This document shows positions 14,360 through 64,000 of a stretch of DNA of 64,000 nt, piece after piece. Origin of the DNA: Candidatus Shapirobacteria bacterium (lineage in GTDB: Bacteria > Patescibacteriota > Microgenomatia > UM-FILTER-40-11); the NCBI GenBank assembly GCA_020059745.1, contig JAGVBK010000002.1:104301-168300 (forward strand), given 5' to 3'. The notes beneath the pieces were generated by a model. The model ran no database searches, was not told the origin of the DNA, and worked only from the letters and a program-made list of their open reading frames with translations. A program made the translations under genes and the position numbers. Within the stretch, counting starts at the first letter, position 1. Every line of letters starts with the position of its first letter.

Positions 14360-16528
14360 TTGATGGACAGAAACCAAATGACTGGAGAAGAATTACCTTT
14401 CTCATTGATTGAGATCCGTTTACCTAAATCAAGCGAAAAAACCCCGGAAGCGGCGGCTCAGCTTTTTGCGGCCTTTTCCTCCCTTCCTAAAAAGTCTTTT
14501 TTGTCTTTTAAACCTCCAGTAAGCATTTGTTTTGAAATTGTTTGTGTTGACCAGGTCGTCCATTTTCTCATTTCCTGCCCTAAGGAAATGAAAGGTTATG
14601 TTGAAAGCCAGCTTTCTGCCCAATATCCGGAAAGCATCCTTCTGGAAATTCCCAAAGATTATCTTGCCGGCTACACCCAAAACTCAAACCCAAACCTGGG
14701 CCAGCTTACTTTATCAAACAGCTTTTATCTGCCTTTGCGAACCTATAAGGAAGTTAAAGACTCTGATCTTATTTCTTCTGTTTTGGGCGCTATGTCCAAA
14801 GCCGGGCCGGAAGATTTTATGGCTATCCAATTTATTATCGCCCAAGCCGGTAACTGGCAAGGCTATGCCCAGGGAATCATTGACAGAGGAATCCCCTCAG
14901 GAGAGGAAGGAAAAACTCTTCCCCACCCCCAGGCAAAACACATTGCTGAAAAAATAAGCAGCGGTGGCTTTTGGACCGCCATAAGAATCATTGCCAGTTC
15001 AGAAGAACTTCTAAGAAATATTTCCAATTCCTTTTCTTCCTACCAAAGCGATGTCAATGGCTTAAAACTTAAAAAAATAAGCCCGAGAAACAAAAAAAAG
15101 CTGCTTGAATCTTGTCTCAAAAGGTCTTTCGAAATGGCTCCTGCTAACCAGGTTCTTAACCTTGACGAGCTCGCTTCTCTTTGGCACCCTCCATCAAAGC
15201 ATTTGTCGGGCATTAAAAACATCATGTGGACACAAACCATTATGAGTGAGCCTCCCCTAAACCTGCCTACAGCAATCGACCTTAATGAAGCTGACAAAAA
15301 AGAAATCAATTTCATAGCCCGGACTGAGCATAAAAACAAGGTGGCAACCTTTGGCATTAAGAAAAAAGACCGTAGAAGGCATGTTTACATTATCGGGAAA
15401 AGCGGTACCGGAAAATCAACTTTAATTGCCAATATGGCCATAAACGACTTAAGGAACCGGGAAGGTCTGGCAGTTATTGATCCTCACGGCGATTTAACTG
15501 AAATTCTTTTGGATTATATTCCCTCTTTTAGGATAAACGAAACTTGCTATCTTGACCCGAGCGACACCGCCAACCCTTTTCATCTTAATCCCCTTGAGGT
15601 TAAAAACCCGGCCCATAGAGAACTTGTGGCCTCGAATATTGTCGCCATTTTTTATAAGCTCTACCACTATTCCTGGGGGCCAAGGCTTGAATACATTTTA
15701 AGAAATACAATCCTGACTTTACTGCAAACCCCGCAGCCAACACTTCTTCAGATTACGGAAATGCTTTCCAATAAAAACTTCAGGAAAAGAGTGGTTGATA
15801 ACCTCAATGACCCGGTCTTAAAAAGCTTCTGGGTTAATGAGTTTGAAAAAATGTCTGAAAAAATGATGAATGAAGCGGTTTCTCCGATTTTAAATAAAGT
15901 CGGCCAGTTTACTTCCTCTCCCACCATCAGACAAATTGTCGGCTCTTATCACTCAACAGTTGACCTTGAGGGTATCATGAATTCCGGCAAAGTTTTGCTT
16001 GTTAACCTTTCCCAAGGAAAAATTGGAGAAGACAATGCTGCGCTTTTAGGTGCCATGATTATTACCCAGCTTCAACTGGCGGCCATGAACAGGATTAATG
16101 TTGCTGAAGAACAAAGGAGAGATTTTTATCTTTATGTTGACGAGTTTCAAAACTTTGCCACCAGTGCCTTTGTTAAAATACTTTCTGAGGCAAGAAAATA
16201 CCGCTTAGACCTTTGTCTGGCAAATCAGTATGTCGGCCAGCTTGAAGAAGACCTGCAAAAAGCAATTTTCGGGAATGCGGGAACTTTAATTTCTTTTGTT
16301 GTCGGTGCCGGAGATGCAGGCTACATGGCCCAGGAATTCGGCCAGATTTATAAAGAAGAAGATTTAGTTAATCTGGGCATGTATCAGGTGGCAATGAAGC
16401 TTTGCATCGACAACTTAACATCTTCTCCGTTTTTGGCTACCACCATGCCTCTTCCAAGATGCAAAAACCAAAACAGGTCAAAAGTGCTTAAGGTCTCCAA
16501 GGAAAGACACACGGTCAAGCAAAAATAA
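14360..16528 (+). CDS. VirD4/TrwB/TraD-like P-loop ATPase (coupling-protein-like), no TM segments
   Basis: 722 aa. Walker A IIGKSGTGKST followed by VIDPHGD, as in TrwB/TraG. Walker B LYVDEFQNF. Arg/Gln sensor region EARKYRLDLCLANQ. N-terminal roughly 340-aa domain of unknown function. Confidence 0.65.
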   Translation: MMDRNQMTGEELPFSLIEIRLPKSSEKTPEAAAQLFAAFSSLPKKSFLSFKPPVSICFEIVCVDQVVHFLISCPKEMKGYVESQLSAQYPESILLEIPKDYLAGYTQNSNPNLGQLTLSNSFYLPLRTYKEVKDSDLISSVLGAMSKAGPEDFMAIQFIIAQAGNWQGYAQGIIDRGIPSGEEGKTLPHPQAKHIAEKISSGGFWTAIRIIASSEELLRNISNSFSSYQSDVNGLKLKKISPRNKKKLLESCLKRSFEMAPANQVLNLDELASLWHPPSKHLSGIKNIMWTQTIMSEPPLNLPTAIDLNEADKKEINFIARTEHKNKVATFGIKKKDRRRHVYIIGKSGTGKSTLIANMAINDLRNREGLAVIDPHGDLTEILLDYIPSFRINETCYLDPSDTANPFHLNPLEVKNPAHRELVASNIVAIFYKLYHYSWGPRLEYILRNTILTLLQTPQPTLLQITEMLSNKNFRKRVVDNLNDPVLKSFWVNEFEKMSEKMMNEAVSPILNKVGQFTSSPTIRQIVGSYHSTVDLEGIMNSGKVLLVNLSQGKIGEDNAALLGAMIITQLQLAAMNRINVAEEQRRDFYLYVDEFQNFATSAFVKILSEARKYRLDLCLANQYVGQLEEDLQKAIFGNAGTLISFVVGAGDAGYMAQEFGQIYKEEDLVNLGMYQVAMKLCIDNLTSSPFLATTMPLPRCKNQNRSKVLKVSKERHTVKQK

Positions 16529-16531
16529 AAA

Positions 16532-16888
16532 CTAGGTTCTTCTTCTGGAAAAATTCAGAAACCGGCAACCATATCTTTTCCTGTGTTCCAAACCCTCCTT
16601 AACCTTACCGCTCATATGGGTGCAGGGCGCGCCCTTACCGGAAGTAATTACTTCAAACAACCTAGCTTTATCTTCTCCTGACAAAAACTCACTTTGCCTT
16701 AGCCTTTCAATTTCCGAAAGCGCTTCAGAAGATAAAGATATGTGGCTGCCAAATTGCTTTTCAATCCTTAAAAGTATTCCACCAAGCATGCCATTACCTC
16801 CCTCCTCAAAATAGCTTTTAACAAATTTTCCAAGCGGTCTAGCGGCAAGATCGCCAGATATTCTCTCAGGTCTCATAGTAATTTTCAT
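16532..16888 (-). CDS. hypothetical protein
   Basis: 118-aa ORF (likely start MRPER). No recognisable motif. Lies directly downstream of a minus-strand intrinsic terminator and candidate leader. Confidence 0.4.
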   Translation of the reverse strand: MKITMRPERISGDLAARPLGKFVKSYFEEGGNGMLGGILLRIEKQFGSHISLSSEALSEIERLRQSEFLSGEDKARLFEVITSGKGAPCTHMSGKVKEGLEHRKRYGCRFLNFSRRRT

Positions 16889-16920
16889 TATAGCAGTTTA
16901 GCTGAGATTTTTTCCAACAA

Positions 16921-17245
16921 AAAATCCGCCTATTCGGCGGACTTCTTGAAAACAATCGAGAGCCAGAGAGAGAATTTGGATTTGCGGGAAACGCTGGCTT
17001 AGCCAACGAATCTCATCCTCTTTCCTCTCTGGCTCTCACCTCCCCAAAGGGAGAAGATAAAGACATCGGACAAAACCTTCTTCTCATTCTCTCCTCTCCA
17101 GCAGCCATTGATGGAAAAGAAAGGTTTCCTGTGCCCCAGCTCACAGTTAGAGATTGGGTTTCTCCTAGTCTTTTTTTTAAAGGACTCCGCACAAAAAAAC
17201 ACTTTCTGCTTTCTTAGGAAGTGTTTGTGAGGAAGATAATAATAA
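16921..17245 (-). ncRNA. candidate structured ncRNA or long leader (unit 1) with sigma70 promoter and intrinsic terminator
   Basis: On the minus strand: TTGACA (17267-17262), 17-bp spacer, TGTTATTAT extended -10 (17244-17239). About 310 nt with no credible ORF and dense in hairpins. Ends in CCGCCGAATAGGCGG plus a U-tract (16946-16921). Identity unknown. Confidence 0.45.
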
Positions 17246-17277
17246 CAAATGCTATTTTTCTTGTCAAGCCCAACAAA

Positions 17278-17700
17278 AAACCCGCCTATTCGGCGAGTTC
17301 TTTGAGAAAACAAGGGAAAACGGATGGGGTCGGGGGAAGGCAACAATACATCAAGTGGTTTTAAAAACCCACAAAATGTATCTTTACCTTCCCGGGTTCC
17401 CCTTACCCTCCCGTTTGACGGGACCGACAGTTGCTTCTCTTTGGTTTGGTAAAAATACACCTTGCCTGGAGAAGCTGGCCCGCTTTAAGCGGAGCCAAAG
17501 GAAGTAGTCCGAGGATATCTGCGAATAAAAGGCAAAATCCCTCCTTTCCTTCAATCACTGCAGTGGCGGATACAACGCCGGGTCGGGGTAACCAAGCTTT
17601 TGTCTTTTGGGTCAGCTTGGTTTTTTAATCCGTTTTCCCTTTTAAAAGAACAAAACATTCTTACCTTTGCTTATAAAGATAAGAAAAATGACACTAAATA
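17278..17700 (-). ncRNA. candidate structured ncRNA (unit 2), homologous to unit 1
   Basis: Same terminator motif (CCGCCGAATAGGCGGG + U-tract at 17300-17278). Homologous upstream box (ATAGCATTT) and TTGACA at 17730-17725. GC-rich hairpins and 5'/3' complementary ends (GGGAAAACGG / CCGTTTTCCC). No ORF. Confidence 0.35.
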
Positions 17701-17744
17701 AATGCTATATAATTTTTTATTTTCTGTCAATATACACCTTGTGC

Positions 17745-18068
17745 CTAAACCTTTGTCCAGCCGGTTTTTTCAAGCTGGCTTATAAGCTGGGGACAATCGC
17801 CTTCTGTAGTAAGCTGCATCACGAAAGCTCCGGTGTCGGTAACCACCTCGCAGATTTCACCTACTTTTCTGCCCTCTTTATAAAGACAAAGACCGCCTTT
17901 TCTTTCCGTAATCTGCTCAGTGCCATGCCCATTTTGCCGAGAAAATCTGACTTCATGATACTCGTTTCCCTTATCGTTCCAAAAGTTTCCATTGCAGTTT
18001 TCGCTAAAGATACAGTGGTTTATAATCCAAACTGAAGGTTGAAAGTGTCCATTTTCAGGACTTAGCAT
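17745..18068 (-). CDS. hypothetical protein
   Basis: 107-aa ORF with more protein-like composition than the overlapping plus-strand ORF. No recognisable motif. Confidence 0.3.
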   Translation of the reverse strand: MLSPENGHFQPSVWIINHCIFSENCNGNFWNDKGNEYHEVRFSRQNGHGTEQITERKGGLCLYKEGRKVGEICEVVTDTGAFVMQLTTEGDCPQLISQLEKTGWTKV

Positions 18069-18201
18069 AATTAATTTTGATATTTTTCAACAAAAATTTC
18101 AATTATCAAATTAAGCCATAAAAATTGACATTATAGGATATTTATGATAAATTTCTGCCCATCCGTTCATTACGGTATGCACATTCACAACAGGAGGTAC
18201 A

Positions 18202-18729
18202 ATGTACATCCGGGAGTTGCCCGCAGTTGGAGAGCTAGCAAAAGTGCAGGCTCAAATCGTCCGGTATGTTCTGCTCACGATTTTTTTCGGATCTCTCCTT
18301 TTTCTCTCTGCCGCTCTTTTCGGCTCCGACATTGTTTGGAGCTGGGATGGCTTTGATCCCTTCTTGGGAGAAAGAGCCATCGAGGGCCTGGCAATCTCAT
18401 TTCTTACCTCTGGGCTGGAAATGCTCAGGGGCATATTGGTTGCAGGAGAAGTAGTAAAAAGGAAATCGCCCGAGTACTACCTTTTGTGCATCCTTGAAGC
18501 AGTTGCCTATGTAGTTGATATCATTACCAACTACTTGGGCATATCTGTACGGCGAGGAGAGTCGGCCTGGGGCTGGACGAGCGACAATGCTGTCGCCACT
18601 ATAGTCAAGGCAGGACTGGCCATCGTCGTCAGCTTCATGGAAATGTTTGTGTTCTGGTTTGCTGAGGCAACGGCTGTTTGCTCGAAATCTCTACAGGCTG
18701 CTGTAGAAACAAAAAAGCAACTGTCCTAG
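18202..18729 (+). CDS. hypothetical membrane protein (GC-rich islet)
   Basis: 175 aa with 3-4 TM helices. About 52% GC. Upstream promoter-like TTGACA-N17-ATAAAT at 18126-18154. Stem-loop at 18741-18780. Confidence 0.5.
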   Translation: MYIRELPAVGELAKVQAQIVRYVLLTIFFGSLLFLSAALFGSDIVWSWDGFDPFLGERAIEGLAISFLTSGLEMLRGILVAGEVVKRKSPEYYLLCILEAVAYVVDIITNYLGISVRRGESAWGWTSDNAVATIVKAGLAIVVSFMEMFVFWFAEATAVCSKSLQAAVETKKQLS

Positions 18730-18787
18730 CCTCATACCTAAGAGAGGGGGTCTCTTGTTTTTTTTGAGGGACCCTCTCTCGCCTTGC

Positions 18788-19387
18788 TTAAATAGAAGTA
18801 ATCTCTTCTTCTTTTCTCTTGCTTAATTCCTCTACTCTTCCTGTATATTCATCGGTTATTTTTTGCAAATCGTCCTCTGCTTTAAATTTCTCGTCTTCCG
18901 AAATTTCCTTTTCTTCAAAAGCCGTTTTTATTTCTCTTATCTTGTCCTGTCTTATGTTTCTAATCGCAATTCTTGCATTTTCTGTTTTCTGACTTAAAAG
19001 TTTGACGTATTCCTGTCTTCGTTCCGAAGTTAAAGGCGGCACTGAAATTCTTATGATGTTGTTATCAATTACCGGAGTCAATCCGACATTGGCAGCCAGA
19101 ATTCCCTGCCTTATCTCTCCAATCACTGAAGCATCCCAAGGCTGGATAAGAAGTGTTTGCGGGTCTGAAGCAGTAATCATACCCAAAGCCTGAACAGTCA
19201 TTTTTTGGGTTCCGCCGTAAGCGTTTACGGAGATATTTTCAACCAAAGCCGGCACGGCCCTGCCTGTTCTTATGGCAGAAATTTCCGTTTTAAAGTGGTC
19301 AACGGTTTTCTGCATATCAGCTTTAGTGTCTGAAAAATCAACCGCCATAGATAGTTGAAGCGTATCACAAAAGAAGGTTTGCTTCAA
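18788..19387 (-). CDS. frr: ribosome recycling factor
   Basis: Full-length similarity to Frr (DVRxxxxGRAxPxLL..., C-terminal coiled coil). The real start is likely the internal MAVDF at about 19348. Confidence 0.85.
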   Translation of the reverse strand: MKQTFFCDTLQLSMAVDFSDTKADMQKTVDHFKTEISAIRTGRAVPALVENISVNAYGGTQKMTVQALGMITASDPQTLLIQPWDASVIGEIRQGILAANVGLTPVIDNNIIRISVPPLTSERRQEYVKLLSQKTENARIAIRNIRQDKIREIKTAFEEKEISEDEKFKAEDDLQKITDEYTGRVEELSKRKEEEITSI

Positions 19388-41229: not shown

Positions 41230-41303
41230 GCCCTTCTAGCTCAACGGCAGAGCGACGGTTTTGTAAACCGTTGATCAGGGTTCAATTCCCTGGAAGGGCT
41301 CCA
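41230..41303 (+). tRNA. tRNA-Thr (anticodon TGT)
   Basis: Cloverleaf: acceptor GCCCTTC/GAAGGGC, anticodon loop TTTGTAA, T-loop TTCAATT, encoded CCA. Confidence 0.85.
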
Positions 41304-41403
41304 GTTTAGGTAGGCGGGTAAACATAGGTCGTCAGTTCAATCCTGACCGTCGGCTCTTGATAGTCGGTTAGTTTATTAGTATGTTAGAATTTAGTATTAA
41401 TTT

Positions 41404-41488
41404 GCCGAGATGGCGGAGCGGTCAAACGCAATGGTCTGTAAAACCATCGCTCGAAAGGGCTACGTAGGTTCGAATCCTGCTCTCGGCA
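41404..41488 (+). tRNA. tRNA-Tyr (anticodon GTA), long variable arm
   Basis: Acceptor GCCGAGA/TCTCGGC, anticodon loop CTGTAAA, type-II variable arm, T-loop TTCGAAT. Confidence 0.85.
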
Positions 41489-41495
41489 CTTAACC

Positions 41496-42122
41496 TTAGA
41501 ACTTAAGAATTGAAAACTTCAGGTTCTCCCCTTCAAGCTCAAAAAGAAACCAGACCGAGTAGTCTTTGTTGTTTCTAATATACAAATTTTGCTTTTGGGA
41601 ATTAAGGCCTCCTGAAGGTACAAACTTGATTGAAGTGCCGTATTTTGAGTCAATGCCGGGAATGGCGGCAAAATCATGGTCAACCTCAGCTCTCACTTCC
41701 AAACCTGCTTCCTGGGCGGTCCAATTCATAAGAGAAGCCAGGTGACAAACTCCGTTTCCGCCTAAACCTGCCACTACTTTATAGCCATCATTAACCATAA
41801 ATCCGCTTTCTTGGGTAATTATCTTTTGCCCTTCGTATTCCGGAAGAATGTTTTTATGAAAGCTGAAAACCTCGCCAGGGTTTAGGATAATTACTCCGCT
41901 ACCTACCTTGTTTAAATAGTCTGTGGCAATAAGAATATTTTCTTTAAACCCATTACTGATGGCAGGCTCTGGATAACGGTAAGAAAGGTCAATAGATTTG
42001 GAAGCAATAGTTTCCCATTTAAAGAGATCTTTTTTCTCTTTTTGGGCCGAAACTGTGGCGTTTGCCTCACCTCTAAGTATTAAAGAGGCGACAAGTAGGG
42101 CAGAAATTATTTGATTGAGCAT
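41496..42122 (-). CDS. VanW-like secreted protein
   Basis: Signal peptide. VAGLGGNGVCHLASL resembles the VanW GGGxCQ motif. Confidence 0.55.
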   Translation of the reverse strand: MLNQIISALLVASLILRGEANATVSAQKEKKDLFKWETIASKSIDLSYRYPEPAISNGFKENILIATDYLNKVGSGVIILNPGEVFSFHKNILPEYEGQKIITQESGFMVNDGYKVVAGLGGNGVCHLASLMNWTAQEAGLEVRAEVDHDFAAIPGIDSKYGTSIKFVPSGGLNSQKQNLYIRNNKDYSVWFLFELEGENLKFSILKF

Positions 42123-42500
42123 TATTTATACAACAAAAAAAGTGTTCTCAAAGAGAACACTTTTTCGCCTTACCTCAACTAAGTAAGCTGATTTTACCAA
42201 GCGCTTATAGGACAAGTCAAGGGCTTGTTTGAGGCTAATTTTGTCTAGTTTTAAAACAATTTTCTTTTCGTCTCCTCGCGAATATGAATGCTGGCTTTTG
42301 ATGCCTTTTATTTTAGTCTTCTATGTAAACAAAAATTTACTTTTATTTTGTTACTATGAGATACTTTACAAATATTTTCTTTAATTTGTTTGAGTAAAAT
42401 ATTTGCTCTATACCATACTAAAGAATAAATTTTCACCTCTCTTCTTTTTTGTATTTACTTGTTCCCAAAAATGCTGAAGTTTGCTAAAATTACTAGACTC

Positions 42501-42573
42501 GCCTAAGTAGCTCAGTCGGTAGAGCATTCCCTTGGTAAGGGAAAGGTCTCGGGTTCGATTCCCGACTTAGGCT
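42501..42573 (+). tRNA. tRNA-Thr (anticodon GGT)
   Basis: Acceptor GCCTAAG/CTTAGGC, D-arm GCTCAGTCGGTAGAGC, anticodon loop TTGGTAA, T-loop TTCGATT. Confidence 0.85.
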
Positions 42574-42654
42574 CAAGGCTAAAAACCGCTAGAAAGCTTT
42601 TAAAAGGCTTTTTAGTTTTAAATTTGATATAATTCCATCTAGAAAGGAAGAAAA

Positions 42655-50530: not shown

Positions 50531-50674
50531 TTAAAACACTTTCATGCTATTATTTTTTAAGCCTTAAGACAGTAAGTGTCTGGTGAAACCGGACTTAATT
50601 TCTTACCGAGGGGACAAATTAATCTTTTGTTTTTGCCTCGGTAAAGCCGGGGTTTTTATTTTTTAAGGAGTAAA

Positions 50675-58945: not shown

Positions 58946-58976
58946 TAATAAAAATTAATTAAAAGGGCAGAATTTG

Positions 58977-59049
58977 TGCCGCTGGAGGGAATCGAACCCC
59001 CAACCTTTCCCTTAGGACGGGACTGCTCTATCCGTTGAGCTACAACGGC
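58977..59049 (-). tRNA. tRNA-Arg (anticodon CCT)
   Basis: Reverse complement gives acceptor GCCGTTG/CAGCGGC, D-arm GCTCAACGGATAGAGC, anticodon loop GTCCTAA, T-loop TTCGATT. Confidence 0.75.
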
Positions 59050-62095: not shown

Positions 62096-62170
62096 CGGAA
62101 TGTAGTTCATCGGTAGAACGCTCGGTTCGGGACCGAGAGGTAGAGGGTTCAATTCCCTCCATTCCGACCA
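62096..62170 (+). tRNA. tRNA-Pro (anticodon CGG)
   Basis: Acceptor CGGAATG/CATTCCG, D-arm GTTCATCGGTAGAAC, anticodon loop TTCGGGA, T-loop TTCAATT, encoded CCA. Confidence 0.8.
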
Positions 62171-63477: not shown

Positions 63478-63630
63478 CTTTCTCCTCTTCTATTTCCATT
63501 TAGAGAAAGTTGTGTTATAATTTCTGCTCAGATACCCTGACTTTGTCTAAGTTTCACCGTCTCTGGTTAACCTAGAGCACTAGGAAAACTCACAGAGCTC
63601 TAGGGGCCCGAGAGGAGGTGAAATTTTTAA

Positions 63631-63909
63631 ATGGCATATCAGGATCAAGTTCTTAAATGTAAAGAATGCGGTAACGAGTTTACTTGGACCGCTTCTGAGC
63701 AGGAATTCTACGCCCAAAAAGGCTTTCAGAATGCTCCCCAAAGATGTCCTTCCTGCCGTCAGGCAAGAAAACAGCAATTAAGGGGTAACCGGCAAATGCA
63801 CACTGCTGTCTGCGCTCAATGTGGTAAAGAGTGTGAAGTTCCTTTTGAACCAAGAGGTGACAAACCGGTTTACTGCAACGAGTGTTACCAACAGCATAAA
63901 AACGGTTAA
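63631..63909 (+). CDS. zinc-ribbon domain protein (two CxxC...CxxC units)
   Basis: 92 aa. CKECG...CPSCRQ and CAQCG...CNECY. Strong RBS GAGGAGGTGA upstream. Confidence 0.6.
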   Translation: MAYQDQVLKCKECGNEFTWTASEQEFYAQKGFQNAPQRCPSCRQARKQQLRGNRQMHTAVCAQCGKECEVPFEPRGDKPVYCNECYQQHKNG

Positions 63910-64000
63910 CACTTTATTGAAACAATAAACCCCGCCGACTCGGCGGGGTTTTTGGTTGGCAAAAAAGGATTGAGGAGCGTTTTTCGCGGATAAGTTTTTT

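Follow-up and report, generated by a model that had tools for sequence, protein, structure and literature searches.

Several large bacterial RNAs, among them OLE, GOLLD, ROOL, HEARO and the raiA-motif RNA, are encoded by stand-alone genes with no obvious mRNA target, and their function was unknown when they were discovered. RNAs of such size and complexity have repeatedly proved to be ribozymes or ribonucleoprotein (RNP) scaffolds. Bacteria of the Candidate Phyla Radiation (CPR, Patescibacteria) have tiny genomes with very little non-coding DNA, and to our knowledge hardly any work has explored which non-coding RNAs (ncRNAs) they have besides rRNA, tRNA and the standard housekeeping RNAs. The locus described here lies on a 64-kb stretch (the window, to which all positions refer unless another locus is named) of contig JAGVBK010000002.1 from a Candidatus Shapirobacteria bacterium. 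On its minus strand, two transcription units stand between the open reading frame (ORF) orf107 and a small ORF, orf118. It is suggested with moderate confidence that unit 1 (about 315 nt) and unit 2 (about 420 nt) are two different, independently transcribed genes for structured ncRNAs, which would act in trans through their structure.

The two units resemble the OLE-type RNAs in size (300-420 nt), in having many helices around multi-way junctions, in conserved loops and junctions and in being stand-alone genes. They differ in that they match none of those Rfam models and occur in four close, Gottesmanbacteria-like CPR lineages rather than across whole phyla. Their structures are also far less supported, with two diverged sequences per RNA. 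Neither unit matches a known RNA family and both are confined to a narrow lineage; they would be previously undescribed members of the orphan structured ncRNAs of bacteria. About 740 nt of a roughly 1-Mb genome would be devoted to two strongly promoted and intricately folded RNAs. Given the four close lineages and no pointer to a specific biochemical role, the units are a solid candidate rather than a discovery.

Promoters, terminators and predicted folds

An earlier note on this DNA, made by eye, had described two ORF-free minus-strand units, each running from a promoter to a terminator. The features were found at, or within a few nucleotides of, the positions it gave. A scan of 4 kb listed 17 promoter-like sites against 5.9 +/- 2.2 in shuffles, and its top two sites (unit 1 first, unit 2 second) fall exactly at the unit starts. 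The unit 1 promoter (17239-17267, minus strand) consists of TTGACA (17267-17262), a 17-nt spacer and the extended -10 element TGT-TATTAT (17247-17239). It agrees with the sigma70 consensus at 11 of 12 positions and, as the best site of the scan, bears out the near-consensus promoter reported at 17267-17239. It starts 7 nt past the GTTGG motif that trails the U-tract of the unit 2 terminator, and it is kept in the related locus L033, where the -10 element reads TAATAT. The unit 2 promoter (17702-17730, minus strand) consists of TTGACA (17730-17725), a 17-nt spacer and TAGCAT (17707-17702), with agreement at 10 of 12 positions and a predicted start at about A17695/G17694. The block from -35 to +1 is nearly invariant in the related loci L035 and L036, and the sequence directly upstream differs.

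This promoter bears on the possibility that the units are long structured 3' untranslated regions (UTRs) of the orf107 mRNA, or small RNAs (sRNAs) derived from that 3' UTR. One unit stands directly after orf107 in every lineage, and there is no terminator between the orf107 stop (17745) and the unit. However, a perfect -35 element and a good -10 element, conserved at 90-95%, follow right after the stop codon, which lies 15 nt ahead of the unit 2 -35 element, while the bases from the stop to the -35 element diverge. In the window a terminator also precedes unit 1, so unit 1 must use its own promoter. An origin of the units as orf107 3' UTRs is therefore given only a small chance.

The unit 2 intrinsic terminator (17275-17297, minus strand) is the hairpin CUCGCC-GAAUA-GGCGGG followed by U6, and both hairpin and U-tract are kept in L035. 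The unit 1 terminator (16918-16948, minus strand) has CCGCC-GAAUA-GGCGG (16940-16926), then an A and U6 (16924-16919), so that the hairpin and U6 are present at 16940-16919, within a few nucleotides of the place first noticed by eye. Its stem is lengthened by pairing of an A-tract with the U-tract (consensus helix 12). The hairpin core CGCCGAAUAGGCG (CGCCGAATAGGCG) with the U-tract occurs as exact copies at 17295-17283 and 16939-16927, and the former is the repeat of the terminator sequence that had been pointed out in unit 2. Allowing up to 2 mismatches, the core has 4 matches against 0.53 expected. Neither terminator was listed by a consensus terminator scan, since pairing between the U-tract and the A-rich 5' flank draws the T-run into the stem.

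The one long ORF inside the region (16999-17460, minus strand) has 153 aa and no Pfam match. NCBI (QZIO01000015.1) and Logan assemblies annotate it as a hypothetical protein. Since it crosses the unit 2 terminator and the unit 1 promoter, and is broken by single-nucleotide indels in a relative, this public gene call is almost certainly spurious.

The two units had been called homologous, which holds for part of their length. In a blastn comparison of unit 1 with unit 2, the alignment is limited to the final 45 nt, at 87% identity, and to short pieces of the promoters. The common part is thus a shell, with a promoter portion of about 30 nt and a terminator portion of 45 nt, and the bodies share nothing and are, by this comparison, not homologous to each other. 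The box ATAGCATTT was considered as a common regulatory element and rejected. It stands at differing distances from the -35 element, within the -10 element in unit 2 and within the spacer in unit 1. On reading, the two promoter regions align when a 10-11-nt indel is permitted, so the box would reflect shared ancestry of the shells. That the two units are distinct, independently transcribed and selected genes for structured ncRNAs is well supported.

Both RNAs are predicted to be highly structured, as the earlier note had proposed. The minimum free energy (MFE) of unit 2 is -166.5 kcal/mol against -115.6 +/- 5.3 in dinucleotide shuffles (z -9.53), and that of unit 1 is -126.7 against -93.2 +/- 5.2 (z -6.50). 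In neither case was any of 100 shuffles as good.

The unit 2 RNA (17275-17695, minus strand) is about 420 nt long and has 15 helices in the consensus. It is also GC-rich as described before (0.49-0.52 within the unit, 0.33-0.45 in the flanks). A 5' hairpin (17685-17658) and a U/A-rich linker lead to the closing helix P1, in which the 5' strand AAGGGAAAACGGAU (17628-17641) pairs with the 3' strand AUCCGUUUUCCCUU (17312-17325). The complementarity of the unit 2 ends is longer than first claimed: P1 has 14 perfect bp with arms 302 nt apart, and L035 retains the helix, with G-U in place of one A-U pair. Inside P1, hairpin H4 (17621-17591) carries a nearly invariant 15-nt loop GACCCAARAGACAAA. It is followed by a nested multi-junction core (17590-17404), which includes the variable hairpin H10 (17473-17435); here the C-rich sequence CCCCGACC is present twice, and both copies pair with the G-rich hub GGGUAAGGGG. 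The loop GGAGG(G)AU of one hairpin and an invariant downstream AUCCUC may form a pseudoknot. A long, highly conserved 3' hairpin (17393-17334) precedes the terminator.

The unit 1 RNA (16919-17233, minus strand) is about 315 nt long and has 12 helices in the consensus. It is predicted to start with a 5' hairpin (17234-17185) and an A-rich linker, which lead to domain A (17173-17059), a three-way junction. A small hairpin (17050-17039) separates this from domain B (17037-16958), a long hairpin that is followed by the terminator. Domain B is closed by a perfect 13-bp stem (17037-17025 / 16970-16958), the one that the earlier note had seen.

Conservation and distribution of the two units

Relatives of the locus were reached through the flanking orf107, which has three diverged homologues at 60-67% identity. 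Unit 1 is 82% identical in its body to the window sequence and unit 2 about 84% identical over aligned columns. The promoters are 90-95% identical. Whole-gene nucleotide identity is 80-86% for tsf, frr and a type IV secretion system coupling-protein-like (T4CP-like) gene, 72-75% for orf107 and 57-78% for orf118. In tsf, frr and the T4CP-like gene the fourfold-degenerate sites are saturated, with 36.5-50.9% identity among window/L033, window/L035 and L033/L035. Since 82-84% identity persists where neutral sites are saturated, the sequences indicate strong purifying selection on both units, which argues for a real function.

Substitutions tend to preserve the predicted structure. The RNAalifold consensus of unit 1 has 100 pairs with 4 double compensatory changes and that of unit 2 has 110 pairs with 8, and no pair is broken in either. 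Two of the double changes sit in the 13-bp stem of unit 1 (A-U to G-C, twice). Many consensus pairs in both units shift from G-C or A-U to G-U by a one-sided change. When the partners are slid by 1-3 columns, pairing falls to 42-58%. Hairpin H10 of unit 2 is swapped in a relative for an unrelated sequence that again forms a hairpin. Folded alone, L035 unit 2 (z -9.69) and L033 unit 1 (z -5.95) take the same architecture as in the window.

Because consensus structures are biased towards intact pairs, a permutation test was made on the MFE structure of the window sequence alone, with the positions of the observed substitutions permuted. Unit 1 has 4 broken pairs against 11.9 +/- 2.1 expected (P=1.5e-4) and unit 2 has 17 against 27.2 +/- 3.2 (P about 1e-3). 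With the structure taken from the relative instead, the outcome was much the same. On the opposite strand both the pairing signal and the folding energy are weaker, which fits the orientation of the promoters and terminators. With two sequences per RNA, these results are supportive, though not definitive, evidence of substitutions that preserve base pairs on the transcribed strand. Changed columns are about as frequent in paired as in unpaired positions (12% vs 15% in unit 1, 17.5% vs 24% in unit 2), so that loops and stems are similarly conserved.

The same data bear on the view that there is no RNA function here and that the region is a decayed pseudogene, an element like a miniature inverted-repeat transposable element (MITE) or a set of DNA-level palindromes. 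The 14-bp perfect terminal inverted repeat around unit 2 and the 153-aa ORF called by public pipelines would fit such a view. However, identity is 82-84% where neutral sites are saturated, and indels break the ORF, which has no Pfam match. The sequence is single copy in 64 kb, with no copy in about 400 kb of related DNA, and on reading no direct repeat flanks the inverted repeat. G-U pairs and the strand asymmetry favour pairing at the RNA level, and the change in the L035 repeat yields a G-U pair, not a DNA match. The earlier note would have taken its view as refuted by a lack of both Rfam matches and covariation-supported structure together with evidence of a degraded pseudogene; no Rfam match was found, yet structure-preserving change and strong purifying selection are present. 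A lack of RNA function is thus very improbable.

The units occupy one slot in different combinations. In the window, unit 2 and then unit 1 stand in tandem between orf107 and orf118. In L033/L034 the homologues of orf107 and orf118 enclose a unit 1 homologue and no unit 2, and the same slot of L035 holds a unit 2 homologue only. Directly inside P1, the L035 copy has an insertion of about 55 nt that forms a further, self-contained hairpin. In L036 a unit 2 copy stands at the start of the slot and the contig ends inside that copy. That one slot between the same two ORFans holds either unit alone or the two together is a natural experiment for function.

The units were found in these four close lineages only. 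Searches with blastn and nhmmer across up to about 466 kb, including the window, gave no extra copies, and each unit is single copy in the 64 kb. Custom covariance models of the best-supported domains, run on the window and 31 loci (411 kb), matched only themselves. A set of 27 Gottesmanbacteria loci anchored on the T4CP-like gene (blastn, nhmmer) is without unit-like sequence, orf107, orf118 or the 175-aa membrane ORF orf175, and only one of them (L001) keeps frr and tsf beside the T4CP-like gene. Phage and plasmid collections (blastn, distant mode) gave no match to the units. Pattern scans of IMG/VR with the terminator and three conserved body blocks gave only a chance match of 19-22 nt. A metagenome scan with the shared terminator module found unrelated contexts only and no further unit homologues.

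Both RNAs have diverged as much as the housekeeping genes, and the simplest history would be an ancestor that carried both units, followed by loss of one unit in single lineages. Unit 1 may have been lost by recombination between the two near-identical terminator modules. The L035 terminator is flanked by unit-2-like sequence on its 5' side and by unit-1-like sequence on its 3' side, which is weakly consistent with a deletion of unit 1 by this route.

Known RNA families and possible modes of action

The flagged region has no match in Rfam 15 at the gathering score in a search of the whole window. The earlier note, which could match neither unit confidently to a family by eye, had proposed this search. 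At E<=10 on 16400-18300 there was only noise far below the family thresholds, and the same held for the relatives L034 and L035 at E<=5. ARAGORN reported five tRNAs and no transfer-messenger RNA (tmRNA) in the window. Covariance models of signal recognition particle (SRP) RNA and 6S RNA gave no match, and the predicted folds are multi-junction, not the 6S rod with a central bubble. Known riboswitch aptamer classes also had no Rfam match in the window region or the relatives. Tandem Repeats Finder on 16400-18300 found no tandem array, and a repeat search found no tandem family. The units do have the general features of stand-alone ncRNA genes, namely their own promoter and terminator, no conserved ORF, selection and structure-preserving change.

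RNase P was the housekeeping RNA that the earlier note had likened to unit 2. The unit 2 core of about 330 nt is superficially similar to bacterial RNase P RNA in that a long helix closes its ends and a hairpin lies directly within. The universally conserved P4 nucleotides of RNase P are GAGGAAAGUCC ... ACAGAA ... GGCUUA. This consensus was not found by reading; the nearest string is GAAGGAAAGGAGGG, with no ACAGAA or GGCUUA partner, and it forms a local hairpin (helix 8) backed by two compensatory changes. There was no covariance-model match to RNase P at the gathering score or E<=10 in the window, nor at E<=5 in L034 and L035, and unit 2 is without the P4, CR-I and CR-V consensus. Unit 2 is also not in the L033/L034 slot, on contigs that are only 2.8-5.8 kb long. 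More generally, a highly divergent housekeeping RNA (RNase P, tmRNA, SRP or 6S RNA) could escape the Rfam models in CPR bacteria. Nothing matched Rfam at E<=10, however, and for each unit there is a sister lineage whose slot does not hold it. Nothing similar occurs in the 27 other Gottesmanbacteria loci, and confinement to four lineages would be unexpected. The similarity to RNase P is thus regarded as superficial, unit 2 being either unrelated to it or different in its working, and a housekeeping RNA of any of these kinds is highly unlikely.

Classical trans-acting sRNA genes are likewise independent intergenic units that end in a GC hairpin and a U-tract. The two units differ in being three to five times longer and almost wholly base-paired, and no conserved seed or target complementarity was found. 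Unit 1 was considered as an sRNA against orf118 because of a perfect 13-nt complementarity between unit 1 (17062-17050) and the orf118 mRNA (16678-16666), and was rejected since this match is not conserved in L033. The sequences thus give no support to a base-pairing sRNA role. A purine-rich motif GAAGATAAAGA and its complement recur over unit 1, unit 2 and orf118 (also at 16728-16740, 17232-17244 and 17379-17391). The match of this motif between unit 1 and the orf118 mRNA is probably a compositional coincidence.

The position ahead of orf118 raises the possibility of a cis-acting leader, in which the unit adjoining orf118 is a riboswitch or attenuator that acts through its terminator. The earlier note had put this forward for unit 1 and the ORF at 16532-16888. 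About 30-40 nt lie between the end of the terminator and the orf118 ORF start, and a structured domain with a terminator behind it is reminiscent of transcriptional riboswitches. However, orf118 has a predicted promoter of its own (16887-16916, minus strand) between the terminator and the ORF. Its extended -10 element TGCTATAAT (16895-16887; 10 of 12 positions, TG present) is kept in L033 and L035 and overlaps the first ATG. Since the first ATG lies inside this conserved element, and L033 reads ATG-TAA at that place, the true start of orf118 is probably the second ATG (16876, 114 aa). The second ATG has no Shine-Dalgarno sequence, so the mRNA would be nearly leaderless. Unrelated RNAs hold the same position in different lineages, and in the window the unit 1 promoter separates unit 2 from orf118. 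No known riboswitch model matches, and the terminator type also ends protein genes. There is no obvious antiterminator competing with the CCGCC/GGCGG stem, as judged by reading by eye only. Given the intervening promoter, the different RNAs at one position and a terminator of generic type, it is unlikely that the units serve as leaders or riboswitches.

Type III toxin-antitoxin loci (ToxIN, CptIN, TenpIN) offer another comparison. In these loci a constitutive promoter, an RNA, a leaky Rho-independent terminator and a small protein gene form one unit. The order of promoter, RNA, terminator and protein gene that such a locus requires is present here. It raises the possibility of an RNA-protein accessory module in which the RNA neutralises or regulates orf118. 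The units could then be two undescribed, CPR-specific classes of large RNAs and exchangeable cassettes, swapped or lost through their shells, that serve as alternative partners of orf118 in a new module of RNA-antitoxin or defence-like type. The order of promoter, RNA, terminator and small ORF is kept in 3/3 lineages that reach orf118, though the RNA differs. orf118 is a conserved basic ORFan (pI about 10) with an Arg-rich tail, and the whole block is lineage-specific and lies in a hypervariable interval. On the other side, the RNAs are without the short tandem repeats of type III systems and a conserved promoter of its own precedes orf118. No match was obtained in PADLOC, Pfam, PHROGs or NCBIfam. 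A ToxN/AbiQ-type endoribonuclease toxin was not found downstream, and orf118 shows neither ToxN-like sequence nor a toxin-like fold. One protein would also need two unrelated RNAs. Such a module is doubtful, though less so than a leader or a 3' UTR, and it is the main alternative to the preferred reading.

The reading of two independent trans-acting RNAs is thus preferred. The RNAs would probably act by virtue of their three-dimensional structure, binding proteins or working within RNPs, and conceivably as catalysts, since loops and junctions are conserved like stems, the folds have multiple junctions and there is no conserved target complementarity. The basic protein orf118 would be the most obvious candidate partner.

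Several points weigh against this reading. The transcripts of both units are predicted from sequence alone, and part of the RNA could arise as a 3' UTR of orf107, there being no terminator between the orf107 stop and unit 2. Two diverged sequences per unit are below covariation of R-scape grade, and the permutation test is home-made. The contigs of the relatives are short (1.7-10 kb), so that absence of a unit refers to the slot and not to the whole genome. A trans-acting, protein-binding mechanism is a best guess reached by exclusion. The choice of orf118 as partner is speculative, and AlphaFold2 models of orf107 and orf118 (pLDDT about 70) matched no RNA-binding fold.

Neighbouring genes and other features of the window

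The order on the minus strand is rpsB, tsf, frr, the plus-strand 175-aa membrane ORF (orf175), orf107, the flagged region and orf118. The T4CP-like gene (14360-16528, plus strand) is convergent with orf118 and is followed by sortase genes. At species level, the neighbouring genes have their nearest relatives in Candidatus Gottesmanbacteria metagenome-assembled genomes. The same locus is present in NCBI assembly GCA_003599075.1 (annotated as Candidatus Microgenomates) and in two Joint Genome Institute (JGI) metagenomes, 3300007351 and 3300007354.

The interval from frr to the T4CP-like gene (16530-18790 in the window) is hypervariable among close relatives. L001 (8166-9039) has unrelated 155-aa and 81-aa ORFs in this interval. 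L033 (3645-5054) has an unrelated 154-aa ORF in place of the 175-aa membrane ORF. In L036 (7906-8514) the membrane ORF is absent, and a DUF6922 gene is inserted between tsf and frr.

The ORFan orf107 (17745-18068, minus strand) is upstream of the RNA cassette in 4/4 lineages. Its product is beta-rich, and the C-terminal half (residues 47-104) matches 22 repeats of a 4419-aa DUF11/CLIPPER protein (P0006). A profile search and an exhaustive hidden Markov model search for the orf107 family found no further members, only the similarity to DUF11 repeats. The protein may be a stand-alone or remnant surface-repeat domain, and orf107 is more likely surface-related than RNA-related. Sortases and weak CLIPPER-domain genes lie within a few kb of orf107 in the window.

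On the other side of the cassette, orf118 (16532-16876, minus strand, 114 aa from the second ATG; 16532-16888, 118 aa from the first) is downstream of the RNAs in 3/3 lineages whose contigs extend that far, and L036 stops earlier. The basic protein has a pI of about 10 and an Arg-rich tail; most of it is helical, and no informative fold match was obtained. As a search anchor orf118 proved to be an ORFan, with only a 98%-identical cluster, and exact-protein look-ups returned nothing but identical copies of the locus. In PADLOC, Pfam, PHROGs and NCBIfam the three ORFans match no defence, phage or NCBIfam model above reporting noise.

The terminator module was also seen in other places. In the window it occurs at 63931-63960 (plus strand) as an A-rich flank, CGCCGAnnnGGCGG and U6GUUGG, after a 92-aa zinc-ribbon ORF (63631-63909). 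It also follows two small membrane-protein ORFs in the CPR-like contig L037 (599-648, 1241-1280). Near-identical hairpins stand after a tRNA and after rplS in GC-rich bacteria (L038 1638-1665; L039 83-109). The design of the module is generic or convergent, and it does not mark the RNA units.

The zinc-ribbon ORF has a leader of about 110 nt between the extended -10 element TGTGTTATAAT and its Shine-Dalgarno sequence and ATG (63510-63630, plus strand). This leader is a possible structured 5' UTR, without an Rfam match at the gathering score. The features that Rfam and ARAGORN did report in the window are a ribosomal protein L10 leader (50545-50667, plus strand, 51.8 bits) and the five tRNAs, which are Thr-TGT, Tyr, Thr-GGT, Arg-CCT and Pro-CGG (41230-42574, 58976-59049, 62096-62170).

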